Notes under the pieces: generated by a model
Seen by the model: only the letters and a program-made list of their open reading frames with translations
What the model was told of the DNA's origin: nothing
Databases searched by the model: none
Made by a program: the position numbers and the translations under genes
Shown here: positions 11,531 to 34,910 of the stretch, one piece after another
Numbering within the stretch: position 1 is the stretch's first letter
Layout of the letters: the number at the start of each line of letters is the position of its first letter
Assembly (NCBI GenBank): GCA_017505165.1
Contig: JAFVPU010000138.1
Location: 1-43,882, forward strand
From: Clostridia bacterium
Lineage (GTDB): Bacteria; Bacillota; Clostridia; Christensenellales; UBA1242
DNA length: 43,882 bases
Direction of reading: 5' to 3'

Positions 11531-11659
11531 ATCTTTTATTTTATGTAAATAATTAAAAAAAAGCAAATGTTTAACGTAAAAAATGCAAAAATTTAGCAAA
11601 CTTTGACTATTTATCTGTTTTTGTTTGACAAAACGAGAGTTTTTTTATATATTCATTAC

Positions 11660-12820
11660 ATGAATAATTTGGTTTCACTTAAGTATCTAGATGATTATAG
11701 ATTGTCAGCAGTAAACAATGTTGTCAAGTCTTGTTTTGCAGACCTTAATATAAGCAGAATTTTAAAACCAAGAGCAAAAGTTTTGCTGAAAGTGAATATT
11801 CCAGGACCATATGCTCCAGATCAAGCAAAAACAACTCACCCTGACATTGTGAGAGGGATTGTTGACGCTTTGACTGAAATCAATGTGTCTGTTACGGTTA
11901 TTGATAGCCCTTATGGCAAGTTTTCACAAGCAGAACTTGATAATGTCTATTTGGAAACCGGTATGCTAGGTATGGCAAACAAAACAAAATGTGCCCTGAA
12001 TCATAATTTGCATACTTATACTCAAGAAATTCCAAATGGTAACAAATTGAAATTTGTTGAACTTTTGGAAGAAGTGAAAAATGCTGATTATATTATCAAT
12101 GTGGGCAAAATAAATGTTGATGACAGATTTGGTTATCTTGGCGCTGTCAATAATATATTTGGATTTGTGCCAGGGGATAGAAAATTGCAAATTATAAACC
12201 GCTTGCCAGATATTGATAGTTATAATGAAGCATTGCTTGATATATATTCGATTTTGAAAGATAAAATAGTGTTGAATATTGTTGATGGAGTGGTTGGTCT
12301 TCAAGCCAACCATGTTCAAAAAATGTTGAGTTTCATTGCAATGAGTGAAGATATCTTTTCTATAGATGCCGCTTGTCAAGATATTATCGGTTTTGATTTC
12401 AAAAAGTCAATACTCTCTATTGCTGAAGAAAAAGGATATTTTAATTCAAATAAACCATATAAAACAATTGGAGAAAATATTGATAGATTCAAGACATCAA
12501 GTTTTGTAACAAATATGGACAATATATCATTGCATAAAGACTCAACAAGTCAACAAAAATTGATGAAGAAATATCAAACAAGAGTTTCAATTCCAGAAAA
12601 TAGATGCAAAGGATGTTCGGTTTGTTCAAAGATATGTCCGGTTGGTGCTATAAATATGAAATATGACAAGAATGGTGATTTGTTTGCCAGTGTTGATATG
12701 AAAAAGTGTATTTTCTGCAATAAATGTGTGATTTCCTGTCCATATTCGGTTATTCAACTTAAACAACCAGCAAAAGATATAAAAATAACTAAGCAAATAC
12801 ATAAACAAAAAATAAAATAA
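11660..12820 (+). CDS. DUF362 domain protein with C-terminal 2x[4Fe-4S] ferredoxin domain
   Basis: DUF362-like N-terminus (KVLLKVNIPGPYAPDQAKTTHPDIVRGIVDAL). Two clusters: CKGCSVCSKICP and CIFCNKCVISCP. TTGACA-17-TATATT-6 nt-ATG. Confidence 0.7.
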   Translation: MNNLVSLKYLDDYRLSAVNNVVKSCFADLNISRILKPRAKVLLKVNIPGPYAPDQAKTTHPDIVRGIVDALTEINVSVTVIDSPYGKFSQAELDNVYLETGMLGMANKTKCALNHNLHTYTQEIPNGNKLKFVELLEEVKNADYIINVGKINVDDRFGYLGAVNNIFGFVPGDRKLQIINRLPDIDSYNEALLDIYSILKDKIVLNIVDGVVGLQANHVQKMLSFIAMSEDIFSIDAACQDIIGFDFKKSILSIAEEKGYFNSNKPYKTIGENIDRFKTSSFVTNMDNISLHKDSTSQQKLMKKYQTRVSIPENRCKGCSVCSKICPVGAINMKYDKNGDLFASVDMKKCIFCNKCVISCPYSVIQLKQPAKDIKITKQIHKQKIK

Positions 12821-18312: not shown

Positions 18313-18375
18313 ACTTTATAAAGTTGTGAAATTTGATTGACAAAATAATTTTATAACTATATAATTGTTATAATC

Positions 18376-18528
18376 CAATGAGTGAAGTGGCGATTCACTG
18401 GGAGATATTGAAAAGATATCCGTTCCTCTTGACGTAATAAGAAATTAAGGTGGGATTATCCAATTAGGGTGGAACCGCGGTAAGTAGATTTATCGTCCCT
18501 ATGCAATTAGTTTGCATAGGGATTTTTT
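18376..18528 (+). promoter_or_regulatory. T-box leader (glycine-type, short form) with terminator
   Basis: AATTAGGGTGGAACCGCGG (18462-18480) matches the T-box core. Terminator CCCTATGCA / TGCATAGGG plus a T-run at 18497-18528. TTGACA-17-TATAAT promoter at 18337-18365. A GGC triplet at 18389-18391 is a candidate specifier but was not assigned with certainty. Confidence 0.75.
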
Positions 18529-18681: not shown

Positions 18682-20046
18682 ATGGGAAGTTTTGACAAAA
18701 TAGTTAATTTATGTAAAAATCGTGGATTTATTTTTCCAGGAAGTGAGATTTATGATGGTCTTGCAAACACATGGGATTATGGTCCTGTTGGAGTTGAATT
18801 GAAGAATAATATCAAGCGTGCTTGGTGGAAGAAGTTTGTTCAAGAAGCAGACAATTCTTTCGGTGTTGATGCTGATATTTTTATGAACAGTAAAGTGTGG
18901 GATGCAAGTGGTCATACCGCGTCTTTTTCGGATCCAAAGATGGATTGTAAGTGTTGTAAAACTCGTCATAGAGCAGACAATTTGATTGATGCTCATAGCA
19001 AGAAGACTGTCAATCCAGATTTGATGAGTAATGAGGAAATGGAACAATATATTTATAACAACAAAGTTCCTTGTCCAAAGTGTGGAAAGTGTGATTGGAC
19101 CAATATTCGTAATTTCAATCTTATGTTCTCAACATCTCGTGGTGTAACAGATGAAGGACAAAATCTTATTTATCTTCGTCCAGAAACAGCACAAGGAGAA
19201 TTTGTCAATTTCCTTAATGTCCAACGTAGTATGAGAGCAAAAGTACCTTTTGGTATTGCTCAAATCGGTAAAGCGTTTAGAAATGAAGTAACTCCAGGAA
19301 ACTTCACTTTCAGAACAATTGAATTCGAACAAATGGAACATCAATGGTTCTGCAAGGCAGAAAATAGTCTTGCTGACTATGAAGTTTATAAGAAAAAAGC
19401 TTTGGATTTCTTGCTTTCAATTGGATTCAATCCAGAACATTTGCGTTATCATGATCATGATAAACTTGCTCACTATGCGAAAGCAGCTTGCGATATTCAA
19501 TTCTTGTATCCTATCGGTTGGGAAGAACTCAATGGTATCCACCACCGTGGAGATTGGGACCTCAGTCGTCATCAAGAATACAGTGGAAAATCAATGCTTT
19601 ATCTCGATCCATATACAAACGAAAAATATATTCCAAATGTAGTGGAATATTCTATCGGTGCAGATAGATTGACTCTCGCAGTATTGTGTGAAGCATATGA
19701 CGAACAAACTCTCGAGGGTGGTGATACACGTGTTGTTATGCATTTCCATCCAGCAATCGCTCCATACAAGGTGGCTGTGCTTCCGCTTCAAAAGAATTTG
19801 AGCGAAAAAGCAATGGAAGTTTATCGCAAACTTAGCAAGAATTTCATGGTAACATATGACGAAGCAGGTTCAATCGGTAAACGTTATCGTCGTCAAGATG
19901 AAATCGGAACACCAATGTGTGTTACAATAGACTTTGATACATTGGAAGATAACTCTGTTACAATTCGTGATAGAGACACAATGGAACAAATCCGTCTTCC
20001 GATTGAGAAGTTGGTTGAATATGTAAGCGAAAAGGTGCAGTATTAA
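18682..20046 (+). CDS. glyQS: glycine--tRNA ligase (homodimeric GlyQS type)
   Basis: FIFPGSEIYDGLANTWDYGPVGVELKNNIK, YLRPETAQG and FRNEVTPGNFTFRTIEFEQME motifs. AAAGGAG SD. Confidence 0.95.
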   Translation: MGSFDKIVNLCKNRGFIFPGSEIYDGLANTWDYGPVGVELKNNIKRAWWKKFVQEADNSFGVDADIFMNSKVWDASGHTASFSDPKMDCKCCKTRHRADNLIDAHSKKTVNPDLMSNEEMEQYIYNNKVPCPKCGKCDWTNIRNFNLMFSTSRGVTDEGQNLIYLRPETAQGEFVNFLNVQRSMRAKVPFGIAQIGKAFRNEVTPGNFTFRTIEFEQMEHQWFCKAENSLADYEVYKKKALDFLLSIGFNPEHLRYHDHDKLAHYAKAACDIQFLYPIGWEELNGIHHRGDWDLSRHQEYSGKSMLYLDPYTNEKYIPNVVEYSIGADRLTLAVLCEAYDEQTLEGGDTRVVMHFHPAIAPYKVAVLPLQKNLSEKAMEVYRKLSKNFMVTYDEAGSIGKRYRRQDEIGTPMCVTIDFDTLEDNSVTIRDRDTMEQIRLPIEKLVEYVSEKVQY

Positions 20047-23923: not shown

Positions 23924-23952
23924 TTGACAACAAATTATCTTTGTGATATTAT
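23924..23952 (+). promoter_or_regulatory. consensus extended -10 promoter of the leuS leader
   Basis: TTGACA 23924-23929, 17-nt spacer, TGaTATTAT (-10 at 23947-23952), then 6 nt to ATG 23959. Confidence 0.65.
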
Positions 23953-23958
23953 GTAAGC

Positions 23959-23994
23959 ATGAAAATAAGAAATTCAGCATTACTATTGCGTTAG
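23959..23994 (+). CDS. candidate leuS leader peptide MKIRNSALLLR*
   Basis: 11 codons, with TTA CTA TTG (three consecutive Leu, three different codons) at 23980-23988. The stop abuts the first hairpin of the leader. No SD, so it would have to be translated leaderless. Confidence 0.4.
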   Translation: MKIRNSALLLR

Positions 23995-24040
23995 GGTGCC
24001 TAGATTTAGGCACAGTTTTTGGTTGTGCTGAAAATATAGT

Positions 24041-24068
24041 TTGACAGCACAATCGCTGTCAATTTTTT
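24041..24068 (+). terminator. attenuator terminator in the leuS leader
   Basis: TTGACAGC / GCTGTCAA stem, ACAATC loop, TTTTTT run, 20 nt upstream of the leuS ATG. The 5' arm overlaps an alternative hairpin TTGTGCTG (24023-24030) / CAGCACAA (24045-24052). Confidence 0.7.
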
Positions 24069-24087: not shown

Positions 24088-26496
24088 ATGAAAGAATACA
24101 AACATATTGAGATTGAGAATAAGTGGAGAAAATATTGGGAGGACAATCAAACATTCAAAACTGATGTTTGGGATTTTTCTCGTCCAAAATTTTATGCATT
24201 GGATATGTTTCCTTATCCATCAGGTTCAGGTCTTCATGCAGGACACCCAGAAGGTTATACTGCGACAGACATTGTTTCAAGAATGAAGAGAATGCAAGGA
24301 TACAATGTATTGCATCCAATGGGATTCGATTCGTTCGGTCTTTCGGCTGAACAATTTGCTTTGGATTCAGGCAAGCACCCAGGAACATTCACAGAATCTA
24401 ATATGGCATATTTCATTAATCAGCTCAAAAATTTGGGATTTTCTTTTGATTGGGATAGATGTATTTCAACTCATCAACCAGAATATTATAAGTGGACACA
24501 ATGGATTTTCAAGCGTTTGTATGACGACGGTTATGCAAAATTTATAGACATGCCTGTGAATTGGTGTGAAGAACTTGGTTGTGTGCTTGCCAATGATGAA
24601 ATTGTTGACGGTAAGAGTGAAAGGGGCGGTTTCCCGGTTGTCAAGAAAAATATGAGACAATGGGTTATTGATACGCCTGCTTTTGCAGAAAGATTGCTCA
24701 AAGGTCTTGATGAAATTGATTGGCCAGAATCAACAAAAGCTATGCAACGAAATTGGATTGGAAAATCTGAAGGTGTTGAAGTTGACTTCAAACTTGAACT
24801 TGGTGGAAAACTTTCAATATTTACTACTTGTATAGAAACTATTTATGGAATAACTTTCATGGTGCTTGCTCCAGAACACAAACTTGTTCAAAAATTGAAA
24901 GATCATATTGAAAATTGGGATGAAGTACAGGCATATATTGATGAAACAAACAAAAAATCAGATTTGGAACGTACAGATTTGAACAAAGGAAAATCAGGTT
25001 GTGAACTTAAAGGAATCTATGCGATCAATCCTGTCAACAATAAACGTGTGAAAGTGTTTATTGGAGATTTTGTTTTGGCTTCATATGCTGATGGTGCAGT
25101 TATGGCAGTGCCAAGTCATGACCAAAGAGATTTCGAGTATGCTATTGCTCATAATATTGAAATGATTCAAGTCATAGATGGTAGAGATGTGAGTGAATCT
25201 GCTTTTGAAAAGCAAGATTATCTTGGCAAAGGTTGCAAGTTGATCAATAGTGAAGAGTTTACTGGTCTCACTGTCGAAGAAGCAAAAGTTGCAATCACAG
25301 AGAAACTCGAGAAGATGGGTATAGCAAGAAAGAAAGTGAACTATCGTATTCATGAATGGATATTTGCTCGTCAAAGATATTGGGGAGAACCTGTTCCGGT
25401 GGTACATTTTGAAGATGGTACGACTAAGTCTATCGGTGATGATGAGTTGCCACTTCTTCTTCCTTATATTGAAGACTACAAACCAGCAAAAGATGGAAGC
25501 AGTCCATTGGCAAAGAAAGATGATTGGGTCAATGTTATTGTTGATGGAAAACCTGCAAAAAGAGAGACAAGTACTATGCCTGGTGCAGCTGGATCAAGTT
25601 GGTATTATTTGCGTTATATAGATCCGCATAATGACAAAGAATTGGCAAATCCAGAGTTGTTGAAACATTGGATGCCGGTAGATCTTTATATGGGTGGACC
25701 TGAACATGCTGTAGGTCATTTGCTTTACTCAAGAATGTGGAATAATTTCTTGTATGAAAAAGGTATTTCACCATGCAAAGAACCATTTAAAAAACTTGTT
25801 CATCAGGGCATGATTCTTGGCGCAAATGGAATAAAGATGGGTAAGAGATATCCAAAATATGTGGTAGATCCAAATGATATTGTTGAGAAATATGGTGCAG
25901 ATACACTTCGTTTGTTCGAAATGTTTATGGGGCCTATCGAGGCTTCAAAACCTTGGGACGATAATGGAGTTGCAGGATCAAGAAAATTCTTGGATAAGAT
26001 ATATAGAATATATCAAGAAAAACAAATCGTAGATCAAGAAAACAAAAATCTAGATCTTGTGTATCACCAAACAGTGAAAAAGGTTACTGAAGACTATGAA
26101 ACACTCAATTTCAATACAGCTATTTCTCAAATGATGATATTTATCAATGCATTATCGAAGGAGACTATTTTCCCAAGAGAATATGCAGAAGATTTTGTGA
26201 AGTTGTTGAATCCAATATGTCCTCATATAACTGAAGAATTGTGGCAAGAATTGGGACACACAGGTACAATTTCCTATGAAGCATGGCCTAAATATGATGA
26301 AACAAAAATGATTGTTGATGAAGTTGAAATTCCTATTCAGATCAACGGAAAATTGAGAGGAAAAATCACTGTCAACAAGTCTGCATCAGAAGGAGAAATT
26401 AAAGAAAAAGCTTTGATTGAAGTTGCTTCTTATGTTGAAGGTGGATATAAGAAAATTATTTATATTCCAGGAAGAATTTTCAATATAGTTGTATAA
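24088..26496 (+). CDS. leuS: leucine--tRNA ligase
   Basis: YALDMFPYPSGSGLHAGHPEGYTATD (HIGH region), the CP1 editing region, and KMGKR in place of KMSKS. AAAGGAG SD before ATG 24088. Confidence 0.95.
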   Translation: MKEYKHIEIENKWRKYWEDNQTFKTDVWDFSRPKFYALDMFPYPSGSGLHAGHPEGYTATDIVSRMKRMQGYNVLHPMGFDSFGLSAEQFALDSGKHPGTFTESNMAYFINQLKNLGFSFDWDRCISTHQPEYYKWTQWIFKRLYDDGYAKFIDMPVNWCEELGCVLANDEIVDGKSERGGFPVVKKNMRQWVIDTPAFAERLLKGLDEIDWPESTKAMQRNWIGKSEGVEVDFKLELGGKLSIFTTCIETIYGITFMVLAPEHKLVQKLKDHIENWDEVQAYIDETNKKSDLERTDLNKGKSGCELKGIYAINPVNNKRVKVFIGDFVLASYADGAVMAVPSHDQRDFEYAIAHNIEMIQVIDGRDVSESAFEKQDYLGKGCKLINSEEFTGLTVEEAKVAITEKLEKMGIARKKVNYRIHEWIFARQRYWGEPVPVVHFEDGTTKSIGDDELPLLLPYIEDYKPAKDGSSPLAKKDDWVNVIVDGKPAKRETSTMPGAAGSSWYYLRYIDPHNDKELANPELLKHWMPVDLYMGGPEHAVGHLLYSRMWNNFLYEKGISPCKEPFKKLVHQGMILGANGIKMGKRYPKYVVDPNDIVEKYGADTLRLFEMFMGPIEASKPWDDNGVAGSRKFLDKIYRIYQEKQIVDQENKNLDLVYHQTVKKVTEDYETLNFNTAISQMMIFINALSKETIFPREYAEDFVKLLNPICPHITEELWQELGHTGTISYEAWPKYDETKMIVDEVEIPIQINGKLRGKITVNKSASEGEIKEKALIEVASYVEGGYKKIIYIPGRIFNIVV

Positions 26497-29908: not shown

Positions 29909-32900
29909 TTATCTTTTGATTTTAATAGTGATTTGTTCGTCGCCTATTTCAATAGTACTTGAATATTCTGAATCGTCAAATACTGCAATTTCTTTAATCA
30001 AAAGTTCTGATTTGATTTTGTCCATGTATTTATTTAATATTTCGTTCAAATCAGTTCCATTTGTTGAGAATTCAGCAATAATTCTATCTTCAACATTGAA
30101 TCCAGCATCTTTTCTCATTACTTGAGCAGAGCGGATAAGCTCACGAGCCAAACCTTCAAGCATCAATTCACGATCGATTGTGATATCAAGAACGACTGTA
30201 ATTTCATTTTCATTAGAAATTACAAATTCATCTTTTGCTTTAGTGTTAAGAGTGAATAATTCGCTGGCAAGATTTGTGAATTCGTGTATATCAACACTAC
30301 CATTTTTATAACCAGCTACCATTTTTGACATTTCATCATCAGTTGCATTTGACAAATAGTTCTTCACTTTTTGTACATCACCTTTAAGCACAGCGCCAGC
30401 TTTACGGAAATCAAGGCCTAAGAATTCGATATTGAATTTTGAATTATCTTGTTCCATAACAACATTTTTGATATTGAGTTCACTTTTAATGATATCACGG
30501 TACAATTCAACAGCACGAGCAACATCTTCATTACCATTGATATACATAGTTTTAAGTGGTTGTTTCACTTTGATTTGATTTTCATTTCTGAGTTTGCTTG
30601 CCATTGTGAATATATCACGAACATAGTCTGTCAAGAGAGTATAACCTTCGTCTTTTACTTTAAATTCTGCGATTGCATAGCGGTGTAGTGCAACACTTTC
30701 TTCAGCGTTATTGTCAAGAGATTTCACCGCATTTTGCCACAAATATTCGCTTATAAATGGTATGATTGGGAACATAACCATAGATATGTTTTTGATTGCA
30801 TAGTGCAAGCAGAAATAAGCGTTCATTGTGTCGATATTGTCTTCGCTCTTGTAGAATCTACGACGATTGTTTCTGATATACCAGTTTGTCAATTCGTCAA
30901 CAAGCATTTCAAAATCTTTGCTAACTCCACCAAAATCTTGATTTGAGTAACAATTGTGAGCATTTTCAGTGAATTCGTTTATGCGATTGATCAACCATTT
31001 GTCCATAAATGTCAAACTGCTTTCATCAGGAGTGAAATTGGTCAAATCTGGCTTATCAATGCAAGCATAAGTATTCAAGAAAATGTACGCGTTCCACAAA
31101 CCTAATATTTTGCGTTTTACTTCATCACATGTGTCTCTTCCGAATTTTACGTCATTGATGAGAGGAGTAGCAACAAAATTGTATCTGATAATATCTGCAC
31201 CAATTTCTTCAAATGCAGTATCAAGTGGAATGTTGTTAGGACTTGATTTACTCAATTTCTTTCCGTCTTGAGCAAGGAGCATAGGAGTGCATCCGATACG
31301 TTTGTATGGTGCTTTTCCGGTGAGAACAACACTCATAACCAACAAAGAATAGAACCACAAACGAACTTGCTCTTTTCCTTCAATTACACATTCCACAGGG
31401 AAATTCTTTTCAAAGAAATCTTTGTCAGTGAAATATTTCTTTGTACTAAATGGAGTGATACCAGCATCAAGCCAGCAATCTCCAACTTCTTTGATACGTT
31501 CGACTTTGCTTCCGCAGTGAGGACAAGTGATTTTGATTTTATCAATATAAGGTCTATGAAGATGTGGTAATGATTCAACTTCTTCAGCGCTAGACAATTT
31601 TTTAAATGTTTCGAGACTGTCAACAACAGTCAATTCTCCACATTCTTTACAAGGGTAGAATGGAAGTGGTAGACCATAATAACGAGAACGACTGATTGCC
31701 CAGTCTCCCATATTATTCAACCAGTCCAACATACGCTTTTTCATAAAGTCAGGACTGAATTTTACAGGTTCAATTGCATTGATGAGTTGAGGGCGAAGTT
31801 CGTCCATTTTGATAACCCATTGATCAACAAGGCGGAACAACAATGGATTTTTACATCTCCAACAGTGAGGATAAGCATGTGTATATTTGTGAGTGTAATA
31901 CAATTTGTTACGTTTTTTCATTTCTTCGAATACGAAATCACGCAATTCATCCGTGTTGGCATTTCTGCCAGCAAATATTCCAAAGTTGCTGTAATAAATA
32001 CCAGCTTCATCAATTGGCATTACGTTTGGCAAGCCTAATTGTTTTCCAAGTTCAAAGTCGGCATCACCACATCCAGGAGCGATATGTACAGCACCTGTAC
32101 CTTCGCTTGAATCAACCAAATCCCAAGCAACAATTTTGTGCTCAAAGTTTTGTTCGCTGAGCTCAGGGAAGCATGTATCATAAGTCAAACCAACCAATTC
32201 GCTACCTTTTATAGTCTTTACAACTTCAACAACGTCATCTTTTAAAACTTTCATAACGTTTGCGCAAACAATGACGTTACGATCACTTGATTTTATTTTG
32301 ACGATATTATAATCAAGTTCAGGATTTACAGCAATGGCCACATTTGCTGACAATGTCCATGGTGTAGTGGTCCATACCAACATATCGTTGTTGCTATCTT
32401 TGATTGGGCATTTGAAGAAAATTGCAAGGCAAGTTACGTCTTTATAAGCATCTTGATCACTCATTTCGTGATCGGATAAACTTGTTCCACAACGAGTACA
32501 CCAACGCATAATACGATGGCTGTTTGAAATATAACCTTTGTCTTGACATTTTTTGAGGAAATGCCAGATGGTGGTGATATTGTTGTCGCTGTTTGTATAG
32601 TAACTGTCATCCCAATTCATCCATTGTCCAAGACGAATAGAACTTTGAGTTTGACTTTTTGAGTATTTATCAACGGTTTGCAAGCATTTCTCAACAAATT
32701 TGTCTATGCCATAGGCTTCAATATCTTTTTTGCTGTTTAAGCCAAGTTCACCTTCTACACGGAGTTCGACAGGGAGACCATGTGCGTCGAAACCATTTTG
32801 GAAATGTTCATCACAACCATTTATCGCAGCGAACTTAATCATAGCATCTTTGAAAGTTCTATTATATGCATGATGAAGACCCATATTATAGTTTGCTGTG

Positions 32901-33043
32901 ATTGGGCCATCAAGGGTGGCAAAAAATTTGCCTGTACGCTTGTTTTGTTCTTTTAATTTTTCAAAGATTTTCTCATCCTGCCAAAATTTCAAAACTTGAT
33001 TTTCCATCTCGACATAATTAAGGTTTCCTTGTTCTTTTTTCAT
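29909..33043 (-). CDS. ileS: isoleucine--tRNA ligase
   Basis: WTTTPWTLSANVAIAV, GTGAVHIAPGCGDADFELG, YPHCWRCKNPLLFR and KLSKS motifs. ATG 33043 is preferred over the track's TTG 33079. Confidence 0.9.
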   Translation of the reverse strand: MKKEQGNLNYVEMENQVLKFWQDEKIFEKLKEQNKRTGKFFATLDGPITANYNMGLHHAYNRTFKDAMIKFAAINGCDEHFQNGFDAHGLPVELRVEGELGLNSKKDIEAYGIDKFVEKCLQTVDKYSKSQTQSSIRLGQWMNWDDSYYTNSDNNITTIWHFLKKCQDKGYISNSHRIMRWCTRCGTSLSDHEMSDQDAYKDVTCLAIFFKCPIKDSNNDMLVWTTTPWTLSANVAIAVNPELDYNIVKIKSSDRNVIVCANVMKVLKDDVVEVVKTIKGSELVGLTYDTCFPELSEQNFEHKIVAWDLVDSSEGTGAVHIAPGCGDADFELGKQLGLPNVMPIDEAGIYYSNFGIFAGRNANTDELRDFVFEEMKKRNKLYYTHKYTHAYPHCWRCKNPLLFRLVDQWVIKMDELRPQLINAIEPVKFSPDFMKKRMLDWLNNMGDWAISRSRYYGLPLPFYPCKECGELTVVDSLETFKKLSSAEEVESLPHLHRPYIDKIKITCPHCGSKVERIKEVGDCWLDAGITPFSTKKYFTDKDFFEKNFPVECVIEGKEQVRLWFYSLLVMSVVLTGKAPYKRIGCTPMLLAQDGKKLSKSSPNNIPLDTAFEEIGADIIRYNFVATPLINDVKFGRDTCDEVKRKILGLWNAYIFLNTYACIDKPDLTNFTPDESSLTFMDKWLINRINEFTENAHNCYSNQDFGGVSKDFEMLVDELTNWYIRNNRRRFYKSEDNIDTMNAYFCLHYAIKNISMVMFPIIPFISEYLWQNAVKSLDNNAEESVALHRYAIAEFKVKDEGYTLLTDYVRDIFTMASKLRNENQIKVKQPLKTMYINGNEDVARAVELYRDIIKSELNIKNVVMEQDNSKFNIEFLGLDFRKAGAVLKGDVQKVKNYLSNATDDEMSKMVAGYKNGSVDIHEFTNLASELFTLNTKAKDEFVISNENEITVVLDITIDRELMLEGLARELIRSAQVMRKDAGFNVEDRIIAEFSTNGTDLNEILNKYMDKIKSELLIKEIAVFDDSEYSSTIEIGDEQITIKIKR

Positions 33044-33091
33044 AATTAAATCATTGCTCCTTTTTTTATTTGTTGTCAAACTGATTACTAC

Positions 33092-33120
33092 AAAAAATGT
33101 CAGCGCTTTGCCGACATTTT
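33092..33120 (-). terminator. attenuator terminator in the ileS leader
   Basis: RNA AUGUCGGC-AAAGC-GCUGACAU (8 bp including one G-U) followed by UUUUUU, about 50 nt upstream of the ileS ATG. Confidence 0.65.
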
Positions 33121-33158
33121 GTAATTTTTATTTAATTCATGACAGGCAAAACGCACAT

Positions 33159-33230
33159 CTACTTCTTTTTAGATGGTAAAATAATATTGCCTATAATAAT
33201 AGTATATATGATTATGCTAAATAATGTCAT
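33159..33230 (-). CDS. candidate ileS leader peptide MTLFSIIIYTIIIGNIILPSKKK*
   Basis: 23 codons, 8 of them Ile (ATA, ATC and ATT all used). The ATG lies 7 nt after the -10 box and has no SD. An in-frame ATG at 33236 would add MT. Confidence 0.4.
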   Translation of the reverse strand: MTLFSIIIYTIIIGNIILPSKKK

Positions 33231-33237
33231 TGTCATA

Positions 33238-33266
33238 ATTTTATCAAACCATTCCGCATTTGTCAA
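33238..33266 (-). promoter_or_regulatory. consensus extended -10 promoter of the ileS leader
   Basis: Minus strand: TTGACA 33266-33261, 17-nt spacer, TGaTAAAAT (-10 at 33243-33238). Confidence 0.65.
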
Positions 33267-33287
33267 TAAATTTTCGATATATTTTCA

Positions 33288-33953
33288 CTAGATTTGCCAA
33301 TCGATTGGTTGGAGATTGTTTTTAGTGAGGAATTCGTTGGTTTTGCTGAAATGCTTATTACCAAAGAATCCGTTATATGCTGAGAATGGACTAGGGTGAG
33401 CAGAAGATAAAACCAGATGGTTTGGATTATTGAGAATTGGCAAGAAAGATTTTGCATGATTTCCCCATAGAAGAAACACTATTGGCTGGTTGAGTTCGTT
33501 GATTATTTTCACAACTTCTGTCGTGAATTGGTGCCAAAGTTTGTTCGAATGGCTGGCTGGCAAATGCTCGATTACACTCAAACTTGTATTGAGAAGAACA
33601 ACTCCTTGTTTTGCCCAAGGACTAAGGTCGGTTGAACTTGACATTTCGATGCCTAAATCATCATGAATTTCTTTGAAAATGTTTCTCAGACTTGGTTGAG
33701 GCGTGTTGTTATGACAACTGAAAGCAAGACCATCAGCTTGACCTTTTGTATGGTATGGGTCCTGGCCGATAATGACAACCTTTATATCTTTTGGAGAAAC
33801 GAAATTAAGTGCATTAAAAATTTTTTCTTTTGGTGGAAAAATTGTTTTTGTATTATATTCATTTTCTAACCAAGAGAAAAGTTCTCGTTTGTATTCCATA
33901 GGAAAACGATTTGAAAGTATTTCGCTCCAATCTTTTGATAAATTGTAATTCAT
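33288..33953 (-). CDS. ung: uracil-DNA glycosylase (family 1)
   Basis: VVIIGQDPYH, GVVLLNTSLSV and HPSPFSA motifs. TGgTATAAT lies 6 nt upstream of the ATG, with no SD. Confidence 0.9.
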   Translation of the reverse strand: MNYNLSKDWSEILSNRFPMEYKRELFSWLENEYNTKTIFPPKEKIFNALNFVSPKDIKVVIIGQDPYHTKGQADGLAFSCHNNTPQPSLRNIFKEIHDDLGIEMSSSTDLSPWAKQGVVLLNTSLSVIEHLPASHSNKLWHQFTTEVVKIINELNQPIVFLLWGNHAKSFLPILNNPNHLVLSSAHPSPFSAYNGFFGNKHFSKTNEFLTKNNLQPIDWQI

Positions 33954-34127
33954 GAGATAATTATACCATAAAATTATTCAAAAGTCTAAAAATTTCTGTA
34001 AAACAATTACAAATTTTTTTGATATACGAGCGAAGATTGATGTAAAAATATTGTCGATTTTTTTATAAAACAGAGTAAGACAGATTTTTGCTTGCTTTTT
34101 TATAGAAATATTTTTATACTAATATTG

Positions 34128-34910
34128 ATGATATTGCACTTTACACCAAAAAATGAGTTGTTTTCAATAGGGAATTTGACCATTACAATGTATGGTCTTC
34201 TTTTGGCACTCGGAATGGTGGCGGGGCTATTGATGACCTGTTATTTGGCAAAAAAGAGAAATATAAAATCTGATGATATTGTTGTGCTTGCTTTGTATGT
34301 TTTCCCTTTGGCAATTTTGGGCGCTAGAATATATTATTGCATATTTTACTTTCAAGAAATATCATTTTCTGAATTCTTCAAATTTACTGATGGTGGACTT
34401 GCTGTGATTGGCTCAATTATAGGTGGAATTATAGGTGGATTGTTGTATTCGCTAATACACAAAAAAAGCTTTTTGAACTTATTTGATATTGTTGTTGCGG
34501 GACTTGCTTTGGGTCAGGCGATTGGAAGAATAGGATGTTATTTTGGAGGGTGTTGCTTTGGTGAAATAGTAACACAAGAAAGTCTCCAATTTTTCCCGAT
34601 AAGTATTCAGATTGATGGTATTTGGCATTATGCAACATTCTTTTATGAAAGTGCATGGAATATTATTGGTTTTGCTATGCTTATATTTGTGTTTAATAAG
34701 ACAAAATCACTTGGAATTCCAACGGCAACATATTTGATATGGTATGGTGTAGGAAGAAGTTTAATTGAAGGAATAAGAGGAGATTCTTTATATCTAGGTA
34801 ACACAAATATAAGGATTTCACAATTGTTGAGCATTGTTATGATTGTAATAGGTGTTGCGATAATTGTATTCAACATTATCAAAACAAAAAAGGAGAAGAA
34901 AAATGGGTAA
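34128..34910 (+). CDS. lgt: prolipoprotein diacylglyceryl transferase
   Basis: FSIGNLTITMYGLLLALG, GARIYYCIFY and GQAIGRIGCYFGGCCFG are Lgt signatures. Start ATG 34128 gives a typical Lgt N-terminus. TTGCTT-17-TATACT-7 nt-ATG. Confidence 0.85.
   Translation: MILHFTPKNELFSIGNLTITMYGLLLALGMVAGLLMTCYLAKKRNIKSDDIVVLALYVFPLAILGARIYYCIFYFQEISFSEFFKFTDGGLAVIGSIIGGIIGGLLYSLIHKKSFLNLFDIVVAGLALGQAIGRIGCYFGGCCFGEIVTQESLQFFPISIQIDGIWHYATFFYESAWNIIGFAMLIFVFNKTKSLGIPTATYLIWYGVGRSLIEGIRGDSLYLGNTNIRISQLLSIVMIVIGVAIIVFNIIKTKKEKKNG

Follow-up and report, generated by a model that had tools for sequence, protein, structure and literature searches.

A probable isoleucine-responsive leader-peptide attenuator, apparently leaderless, upstream of ileS in a Clostridia lineage

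INTRODUCTION

Aminoacyl-tRNA synthetase genes of the Bacillota are textbook T-box territory. The T-box binds uncharged tRNA directly, and translation is not needed. What, then, controls a gene for isoleucyl-tRNA synthetase (IleRS) of this phylum that is preceded by a promoter, a small open reading frame (ORF) crowded with isoleucine codons and an intrinsic terminator, where a T-box would be expected? The question is raised by contig JAFVPU010000138.1 (assembly GCA_017505165.1) from a Clostridia bacterium of the Christensenellales family UBA1242, whose 43,882 nucleotides (nt) are together called the window here. On its minus strand, between ung and ileS, lies the 23-codon ORF in question. A preliminary description, made from the letters of the window, had proposed that it is the leader peptide of a ribosome-mediated attenuator.

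The comparisons presented here largely bear that proposal out: the small Ile-rich ORF, the promoter-ATG layout, the terminator and an antiterminator are conserved in 44 related genomes, and other relatives carry T-boxes in the orthologous slots. We conclude that the ileS leader is very probably an Ile-responsive leader-peptide transcription attenuator. Below we describe the leader and its relatives, the RNA switch and its probable working, the T-boxes of orthologous loci, and a second leader of the same kind before leuS, and then weigh other explanations. Coordinates of all features are collected in Table 1.

THE LEADER ORF AND ITS PROMOTER

All coordinates were re-read on the minus strand, and the promoter, ORF, terminator, ileS Shine-Dalgarno (SD) sequence and ileS start codon stand where the preliminary description had placed them. 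A promoter scan of the 1.7 kb from 32500 to 34200 ranks the leader promoter as the top promoter-like site. The ORF devotes 8 of its 23 codons to Ile, in runs of three, three and two, and uses ATA, ATC and ATT. Such frames had been feared to arise easily in AT-rich DNA; in fact this is the only one of 528 ATG-initiated ORFs (12-40 codons, six frames, whole window) in which Ile makes up 34.8% or more of the residues and occurs six times or more. The terminator folds at -16.3 kcal/mol (z = -5.3), a value equalled by none of 200 shuffles.

Relatives were collected by an IleRS protein scan, keeping one genome per species, which gave 76 loci with IleRS 56-89% identical. In 44 of the 76, ileS is preceded on its own strand by an Ile-rich ORF of 14-25 codons. 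The encoded peptides form three groups: class A, with the window leader and, for example, MGILSFIFAVIIISKIILPIKL; class B, such as MFKAIIIRNIIINI, MLNTIIITNIIISI and MSFSTIIIGKIIISSKF; and group C, with the peptide MKTINANIIINIIIA. Outside the Ile runs they differ widely. Ile accounts for 38.3% of the residues of the 40 distinct leaders, Leu for 9.1% and Val for 4.3%; the Ile share is 7.5% in four large window proteins, and 2.7% and 7.4% in the other two frames of the leaders. The Ile codons vary synonymously (172 ATT, 52 ATA, 46 ATC).

The promoter is as constant as the Ile runs. TTGAC[AT], a spacer of 16-17 nt and TAnnnT are found in 43 of 43 leaders examined, most of them with the extended TG. 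The ATG follows the end of the -10 box by 6 nt in 24 leaders, by 7 nt in one, by 9 nt in 11 and by 11 nt in three. In the other four, the window leader among them, the promoter itself contains an additional in-frame ATG, at 0-1 nt from the end of the -10 box, and the second ATG stands 6-7 nt past that box. An SD-like motif precedes the small ORF in 3 of the 43, as against 44 of 44 loci for ileS. Aligning the ileS upstream regions of related genomes, as the preliminary description had suggested, thus finds the Ile-rich frame and the promoter-ATG spacing conserved, together with the compensatory stem changes given in the next section.

Bacterial transcripts mostly start about 7 nt past the -10 box. 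The spacing observed here therefore implies that the leader mRNA should begin at the AUG or a few nt from it (A33231 or A33230 in the window). As a proxy for leaderless initiation we took a -10 box about 6-7 nt before an ATG that lacks an SD sequence; the window leader has this layout, at 7 nt.

Two full-length genes of the window are arranged in the same way. One encodes 732 amino acids from an ATG at 1346 (plus strand; promoter region 1309-1348, TTGACA-17-TATTAT-7) and the other 386 amino acids from an ATG at 11660 (plus strand; promoter region 11626-11662, TTGACA-17-TATATT-6), both without an SD sequence. Leaderless initiation therefore looks normal for the host, and the layout suggests that leaderless mRNAs may be common in this organism.

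The leader belongs to ileS in its genomic context as well. At 44 loci, some of those with a T-box included (L006, L057, L051, L052), the gene located upstream of ileS is ung. At loci where 1.2-2.3 kb of other genes separates ung from ileS, the leader stays beside ileS. Since the leader tracks ileS across these insertions, the hairpin is not merely the terminator of ung.

THE RNA SWITCH

Three helices compete in the leader RNA of the window. Segment 1 lies within the Ile codons of the ORF, segment 2 shortly after its stop codon, and segment 3 in the top of the terminator. Segments 1 and 2 form a putative anti-antiterminator (-7.5 kcal/mol, seen in the minimum free energy (MFE) fold) and segments 2 and 3 an antiterminator of 10 bp. 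A folding comparison called for in the preliminary description gives -14.3 kcal/mol for the antiterminator and -13.3 for the terminator core.

The conservation of each helix was counted on an alignment of 37 leaders, with slid versions of the same helix as controls. RNAalifold run on this alignment gave the terminator top only, which is the result expected for a switch, and the helices were therefore tested one by one. The terminator is paired in 92.9% of alignment cells (31-49% in slid controls) and the antiterminator in 93.2% (26-69%). In the antiterminator both partners have changed in three pairs, amounting to nine cells, a score reached by none of 500 shuffles; its pair 69:125 is UA in 22 leaders, UG in 6, AU in 5, GC in 1 and GU in 1. 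The segment 1:2 helix is paired in 76.4% of cells (36-60%), class B forming it in a different register. One change links all three segments: where segments 1, 2 and 3 of most relatives carry AGC, GCU and AGC, those of the window carry GGC, GCC and GGC.

The same pairing can be recognized by motif. Nearly all class A and class B leaders carry GCG(U/A)UUUGCUG past the stop codon. A terminator built as AUGUCAGC-loop-CGCUGGCAUUUUUU follows, and its top (end of the 5' arm, loop and first bases of the 3' arm) has this motif as reverse complement. A test that needs no alignment, in which the spacer between stop codon and terminator was paired with the terminator top and shuffled spacers served as control, gave a median z of -3.5 over the 37 leaders; in 33 of them at most 5 of 200 shuffles did as well. 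The window spacer forms a duplex of -19.6 kcal/mol, the mean of its shuffled versions is -6.6, and none of the 200 is as good.

Group C leaders (L030-L034 and L063) reach the same architecture from unrelated sequence. In these, the terminator ACUACCAUAUAGCGUAUAUGGUAGU contains CAUAUAGCGU, the pairing partner of ACGCUAUAUG; a strand that can fold back onto the region of the Ile codons follows directly.

The antiterminator differs from the one first proposed. The preliminary description had paired AGAUGUGCG (33160-33152) with CGC-ug-ACAUUU. That helix of nine pairs with a 2-nt bulge does exist in the window, but it is not the conserved one: alone it is worth -2.7 kcal/mol, and its GCG:CGC pairs are all that it shares with the conserved antiterminator. 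The preliminary description caught the edge of the real antiterminator and missed its core. The outer part, AGAUGU:ACAUUU, can stack on the conserved helix in the window to give a 16-bp antiterminator with a 2-nt bulge. As a conserved helix this outer part was rejected, being paired in 67.8% of cells where slid controls reach 64-77%, and it is at most an extension specific to the window.

The accompanying idea, that a ribosome at the stop codon masks the antiterminator strand and a ribosome stalled at the Ile codons leaves it free, still works with the corrected helix. With the RNA masked to 33168 or to 33180, as by a ribosome in Ile run 3 or run 2, and with the full terminator sequence included in the fold, the antiterminator is the MFE structure (-20.3 and -22.5 kcal/mol, respectively). 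With the RNA masked through 33147, as by a ribosome on the stop codon covering about 13 nt beyond it, the terminator alone forms (-16.6 kcal/mol). In the MFE fold of the full leader free of ribosomes, segments 1 and 2 are paired and the terminator is formed.

PROPOSED MECHANISM

In the classical logic of trp, his and pheST, scarcity of a charged tRNA stalls the ribosome at cognate codons, an antiterminator forms and transcription reads through. We propose the following version for ileS. The strong sigma-70-type promoter would start the transcript at the AUG or 1 nt before it, and the 23-codon ORF would be read as a leaderless mRNA, presumably by a ribosome coupled to the transcribing polymerase. 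When charged Ile-tRNA is plentiful, the ribosome would reach the stop codon and cover segment 2; segment 4 would then be the only partner left for segment 3, the terminator would form and transcription would stop before ileS. When it is scarce, the ribosome would stall in Ile run 2 or 3 and cover segment 1, leaving segment 2 free to pair with segment 3 once this is transcribed; the terminator would be blocked and RNA polymerase would enter ileS. If the leader is not translated at all, segments 1 and 2 would pair and the terminator would form. Because IleRS itself charges tRNA-Ile, such a loop is homeostatic, as it is in T-box control.

T-BOXES AT ORTHOLOGOUS LOCI

The preliminary description had noted that ileS lacks a T-box and that a glycyl-tRNA synthetase gene of the same window has one, and both statements stand. 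Scanning 32800-33500 with Rfam found no T-box match at E <= 10, including the core AGGGUGGNACCGCG, and nothing significant of any other family. The best leader-type match is Thr_leader, which scores 14.3 bits (E 7.5) where the cutoff is 55, and none of the amino-acid leader families (Thr_leader, Leu_leader, His_leader and others) reaches its gathering threshold at the locus. The gathering score of the T-box family (RF00230) in the Rfam release used is 93 bits; scans at gathering threshold therefore missed genuine T-boxes, and E-value thresholds were used instead. The same method detects a T-box at 18369-18503 (48.6 bits, E 8e-10) in the leader of glyS (18682-20046, plus strand); there the core reads AGGGUGGAACCGCGG, and the terminator of this leader ends at about 18528.

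It also detects T-boxes at the ileS loci of seven relatives (34-89 bits). A hidden Markov model (HMM) built from these seven finds seven more, for a total of 14 ileS loci, and by eye the specifier of these T-boxes is AUC (within UAUCAC). Two of the loci are close to the window: L006 (T-box at 2129-2339) and L057 (942-1152) encode IleRS 81% and 85% identical to that of the window.

A neighbour-joining tree of 550 IleRS residues, which is approximate, places the outgroups, with T-boxes or an abutting upstream gene, outside a clade of at least 74% identity in which nearly all loci have leader peptides. The T-box loci L006 and L057 are nested within this clade, and two further members, L055 and L062, are exceptions without any leader. 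Group C is a separate leader-peptide clade beside T-box lineages.

The two devices thus meet at one gene. Since ung lies upstream of ileS at T-box and leader loci alike, they share the same syntenic slot, and they share the goal of reading through a terminator when tRNA-Ile is uncharged. The window leader, unlike a T-box, encodes an Ile-rich peptide.

A SECOND LEADER BEFORE leuS

The leuS gene of the window stands behind what appears, from its sequence, to be a second attenuator analogous to the ileS leader: a promoter of the same kind, an 11-codon ORF with three Leu codons in a row, a complementary strand and a terminator (Table 1). Its antiterminator is more stable than its terminator. We infer a helix relay of five segments, the hairpin after the stop codon being one of them.

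A LeuRS (leucyl-tRNA synthetase) scan of metagenomes returned mostly distant relatives, several with T-box-like cores upstream and one only (L077) with a leader; closer leuS relatives were obtained by protein look-ups. Together these gave homologous Leu leaders in five relatives (L077 and L158-L161), with the peptides MKINALALLLR, MNKSLALLLL, MKSLNLLLTI, MNKQTLALLLR and MKKNIFKALL. The -10 box ends 6 nt before the ATG in the four that were fetched by exact protein look-up. In four other close relatives (L157 and L162-L164) the Leu leader was not found.

Table 1. Features of the ileS and leuS leader regions, in window coordinates
Feature	Position	Strand	Basis or remark
ung	33953-33288	minus	upstream neighbour of ileS
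-35 hexamer of leader promoter, TTGACA	33266-33261	minus	sequence and promoter scan
Extended -10, TGaTAAAAT, 17 nt past -35	33246-33238	minus	11 of 12 matches plus TG
Leader ORF MTLFSIIIYTIIIGNIILPSKKK and stop, without SD	33230-33159	minus	ATG at 33230, 7 nt past -10
Ile run 1, codons 6-8, ATA ATC ATA	33215-33207	minus	read from sequence
Ile run 2, codons 11-13, ATT ATT ATA	33200-33192	minus	aligns with conserved III run of relatives
Segment 1, AUAGGCAA, codons Ile13-Gly14-Asn15	33194-33187	minus	5' strand of anti-antiterminator, partner 33149-33142
Ile run 3, codons 16-17, ATT ATT	33185-33180	minus	sequence and alignment
Inner hairpin CAUCUA...UAGAUG around stop codon	33175-33156	minus	folding; CATCTA/TAGATG also in class B relatives
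Leader stop codon UAG	33161-33159	minus	read from sequence
Segment 2, GCGUUUUGCC, 5' strand of antiterminator	33154-33145	minus	starts 4 nt past stop codon
Partner of segment 1, UUGCCUGU, overlapping segment 2	33149-33142	minus	pairing
Intrinsic terminator, stem AAAAUGUCGGC / GCUGACAUUUU, then U6	33120-33092	minus	begins 38 nt past leader stop
Segment 3, GGCAAAGCGC, 3' strand of antiterminator	33112-33103	minus	top of terminator 5' arm, loop and first 3'-arm bases
ileS SD sequence GGAG	33060-33057	minus	read from sequence
ileS, regulated gene, 1044 amino acids	33043-29909	minus	NCBIfam ileS, 730 bits
leuS promoter, TTGACA, 17 nt, TGaTATTAT	-35 23924-23929, -10 23947-23952	plus	sequence
leuS leader ORF MKIRNSALLLR and stop, Leu codons TTA CTA TTG in a row	23959-23994	plus	ATG 6 nt past -10
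leuS leader hairpin after stop	23995-24013	plus	sequence
GGUUGUGCUG, complementary to CAGCACAAUC (24045-24054)	24021-24030	plus	pairing
leuS leader terminator GACAGC-ACAAUC-GCUGUC, then AAUUUUUU	24043-24068	plus	sequence
leuS	24088-26496	plus	gene behind Leu leader

OTHER EXPLANATIONS AND THE WEIGHT OF THE EVIDENCE

The small ORF might encode an independent hydrophobic membrane peptide, a type I toxin or other, with ileS transcribed separately, for example from the TTGACA at 33079-33074. The window peptide is indeed hydrophobic and has a KKK tail, a C-terminal ILPIK(L/M) is common to class A relatives, and there are promoter-like sites on the opposite strand as well as past the terminator (TTGACA, 18 nt, AATGAT). 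We nevertheless consider this improbable. Many of the relatives' peptides, just 14-17 residues long with much Asn, Ser and Lys, have neither the length nor the hydrophobicity to cross a membrane; it is the Ile runs that are conserved and not the peptide sequence; and the enrichment is specific to Ile, with Leu and Val far behind. The element is always directly upstream of ileS, even when genes part ung and ileS. The separate ileS promoter (33079-33050) was rejected as a candidate: its -10 box is poor, a transcript starting at the ileS ATG would skip the SD sequence found in all 44 loci, and by eye the relatives' spacers contain none. The promoter-like match on the opposite strand (TTTAGA-18-TATAAT at 33168-33197, plus strand) falls inside the leader ORF region and is a by-product of its codons, as TATAAT is the reverse complement of the pair ATT-ATA. 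Spurious -10 boxes of this origin are generally to be expected on the antisense strand of Ile-rich leaders.

A second possibility keeps the RNA attenuator and changes the signal: the nascent peptide, through its ILPxK C-terminus for instance, would arrest the ribosome on a small molecule or antibiotic, like TnaC and the Erm leaders. ILP(I/S)K(L/M/K) is kept at the C-terminus throughout class A, window included, yet class B and group C, which lack it, have kept the Ile runs and the RNA switch. The ILPIKL codons overlap a conserved RNA hairpin, UUCUAC...GUAGAA, around the stop codon, and this overlap offers a reason for their conservation. Moreover, arrest close to the stop codon would hide segment 2 under the ribosome and so promote termination, the opposite of induction. 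We give this possibility little credence.

Barely credible is a chance ORF in AT-rich DNA (the window has about 32% G+C) with the hairpin, which does lie downstream of ung, as the ung terminator and ileS constitutive from the strong promoter via a long 5' untranslated region: no other of the 528 small ORFs of the window is this Ile-rich, the ORF, its frame and Ile runs are conserved in 44 genomes through synonymous Ile codon changes, the terminator travels with ileS and not with ung, and a strong terminator about 140 nt past a strong promoter would leave ileS without expression unless termination were relieved.

Several points weigh against Ile-responsive attenuation itself. The whole case is computational, and the relatives' genomes are metagenome-assembled, mostly labelled Candidatus Onthoplasma, Christensenella or uncultured Clostridia. 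In the terminator, both partners have changed at one pair only among the 37 leaders, so that there is little true covariation, and the segment 1:2 helix is the weakest element of the switch. The aligned sequences are related, and shuffle counts and covariation therefore overstate significance. The leader mRNA is apparently leaderless, as judged from promoter spacing alone. Finally, the ILP(I/S)K tail of class A could reflect a role of the peptide and not only the overlapping RNA hairpin. The unrelated leaders of group C and the leuS leader make up for the kinship among the aligned leaders.

OTHER FEATURES OF THE ileS LOCI

The window IleRS is of the long form, and after ileS the next-best models are those of mupirocin-resistant MupA/MupB (about 579 bits, under their cutoffs). 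Given this score, mupirocin may be unusable as an inducer in the native host. A terminator-like match on the plus strand at 33297-33312 sits within ung and is at chance level (two found, 0.9 expected).

Four relatives (L001, L005, L007 and L011) have spacers of 100-330 nt between terminator and ileS. These contain palindromic, repeat-like insertions, among them GTCACCCTGAGCG ... CGCTCAGAATGACA and GTCATGTTGAGCGAAGTC ..., which resemble small mobile or REP-like (repetitive extragenic palindromic) elements downstream of the attenuator. At L071, neither a T-box nor an Ile leader was found in the 300 nt upstream of ileS; several repeat units are present there, such as ATGAAGTCGT / CTTCATATG and TTAAGGCG...CGCCTTAA. 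In the distant clade L036-L060 (IleRS below 60% identity), the strand opposite to ileS carries a large signal recognition particle (SRP) RNA gene some 1-1.5 kb upstream of it, as at 1460-1729 of L052 (minus strand).

DISCUSSION

The mechanism proposed for ileS is already known; the interest lies in which genes it targets, in the phylum, in a leaderless layout that is conserved and in an apparent turnover with T-boxes. One close and established parallel is E. coli pheST with its pheM leader, likewise an attenuator of a synthetase operon that uses cognate codons and a terminator/antiterminator switch (PMC1262725). It is proteobacterial, SD-led and based on Phe codons, and shares no sequence similarity with the leader described here, which is apparently leaderless, from Clostridia, and has counterparts before both ileS and leuS. 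Another is ilvBNC of C. glutamicum, for which a three-hairpin model has been given: IlvL is likewise a leaderless leader peptide with branched-chain codons, followed by anti-antiterminator, antiterminator and terminator (PMC11857589). That system, however, is actinobacterial, controls a biosynthetic operon, combines Ile, Val and Leu codons, and is unrelated in sequence.

Other systems also resemble the ileS leader. His-leader attenuators predicted in Firmicutes by comparative genomics are likewise lineage-specific stand-ins for other regulators, and are described for lineages without T-box or HisR control (the B. cereus group, Peptostreptococcaceae and Erysipelotrichales); they control his biosynthesis operons rather than synthetases, and the parts of that account consulted here mention no leaderless arrangement (PMC9413887). 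The polycysteine small ORFs of mycobacteria are leaderless, rich in one amino acid and act in cis according to its supply (bioRxiv 10.1101/834739; PMC4633059), but they are actinobacterial, use Cys codons and precede cysteine-related operons. In Caulobacter crescentus, ribosome profiling identified a small translated coding sequence (CDS) before ileS, CCNA_03934, named an 'ileS leader CDS' (PMC4117421). It is alphaproteobacterial and appears in that paper only as a control, with no mechanism given, and the likeness is one of description.

For the Firmicutes, a comparative study stated that synthetase genes are regulated by T-boxes and that classical attenuation controls none of them (PMC1262725). 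Our literature search found no leader-peptide attenuator of ileS or leuS described in Bacillota; Lopatovskaya et al. (2010, Mol Biol 44:128), who treat attenuated operons for amino acids and aminoacyl-tRNA, lay outside it. The findings run counter to that generalization: within one narrow clade, orthologous ileS genes have either a T-box or what is very probably a leader attenuator, and leuS has the same leader design.

Onthoplasma is a gut lineage of the Christensenellales family UBA1242 with genomes of about 0.76-0.92 Mb (PMC12306168). We lean slightly towards the view that this reduced-genome lineage and its relatives have rewired ileS and leuS from T-boxes to leaderless leader-peptide attenuators, ileS by way of at least two unrelated RNA designs, and that T-box and leader versions alternate in the ung-ileS slot at more than 80% IleRS identity. 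If true, this would be a recent and repeated turnover between two sensing mechanisms for one signal.

The finding matters in three further ways. For annotation, ORFs of 14-25 codons and the RNA switches that go with them escape standard pipelines and Rfam. For translation, leaderless initiation in a Clostridia lineage is suggested by at least two full-length genes as well as by the leader peptides. For the evolution of regulation, the clade offers a natural comparison of two devices that respond to the same signal, uncharged tRNA, and could reveal what drives the replacement of one by the other and how it proceeds.

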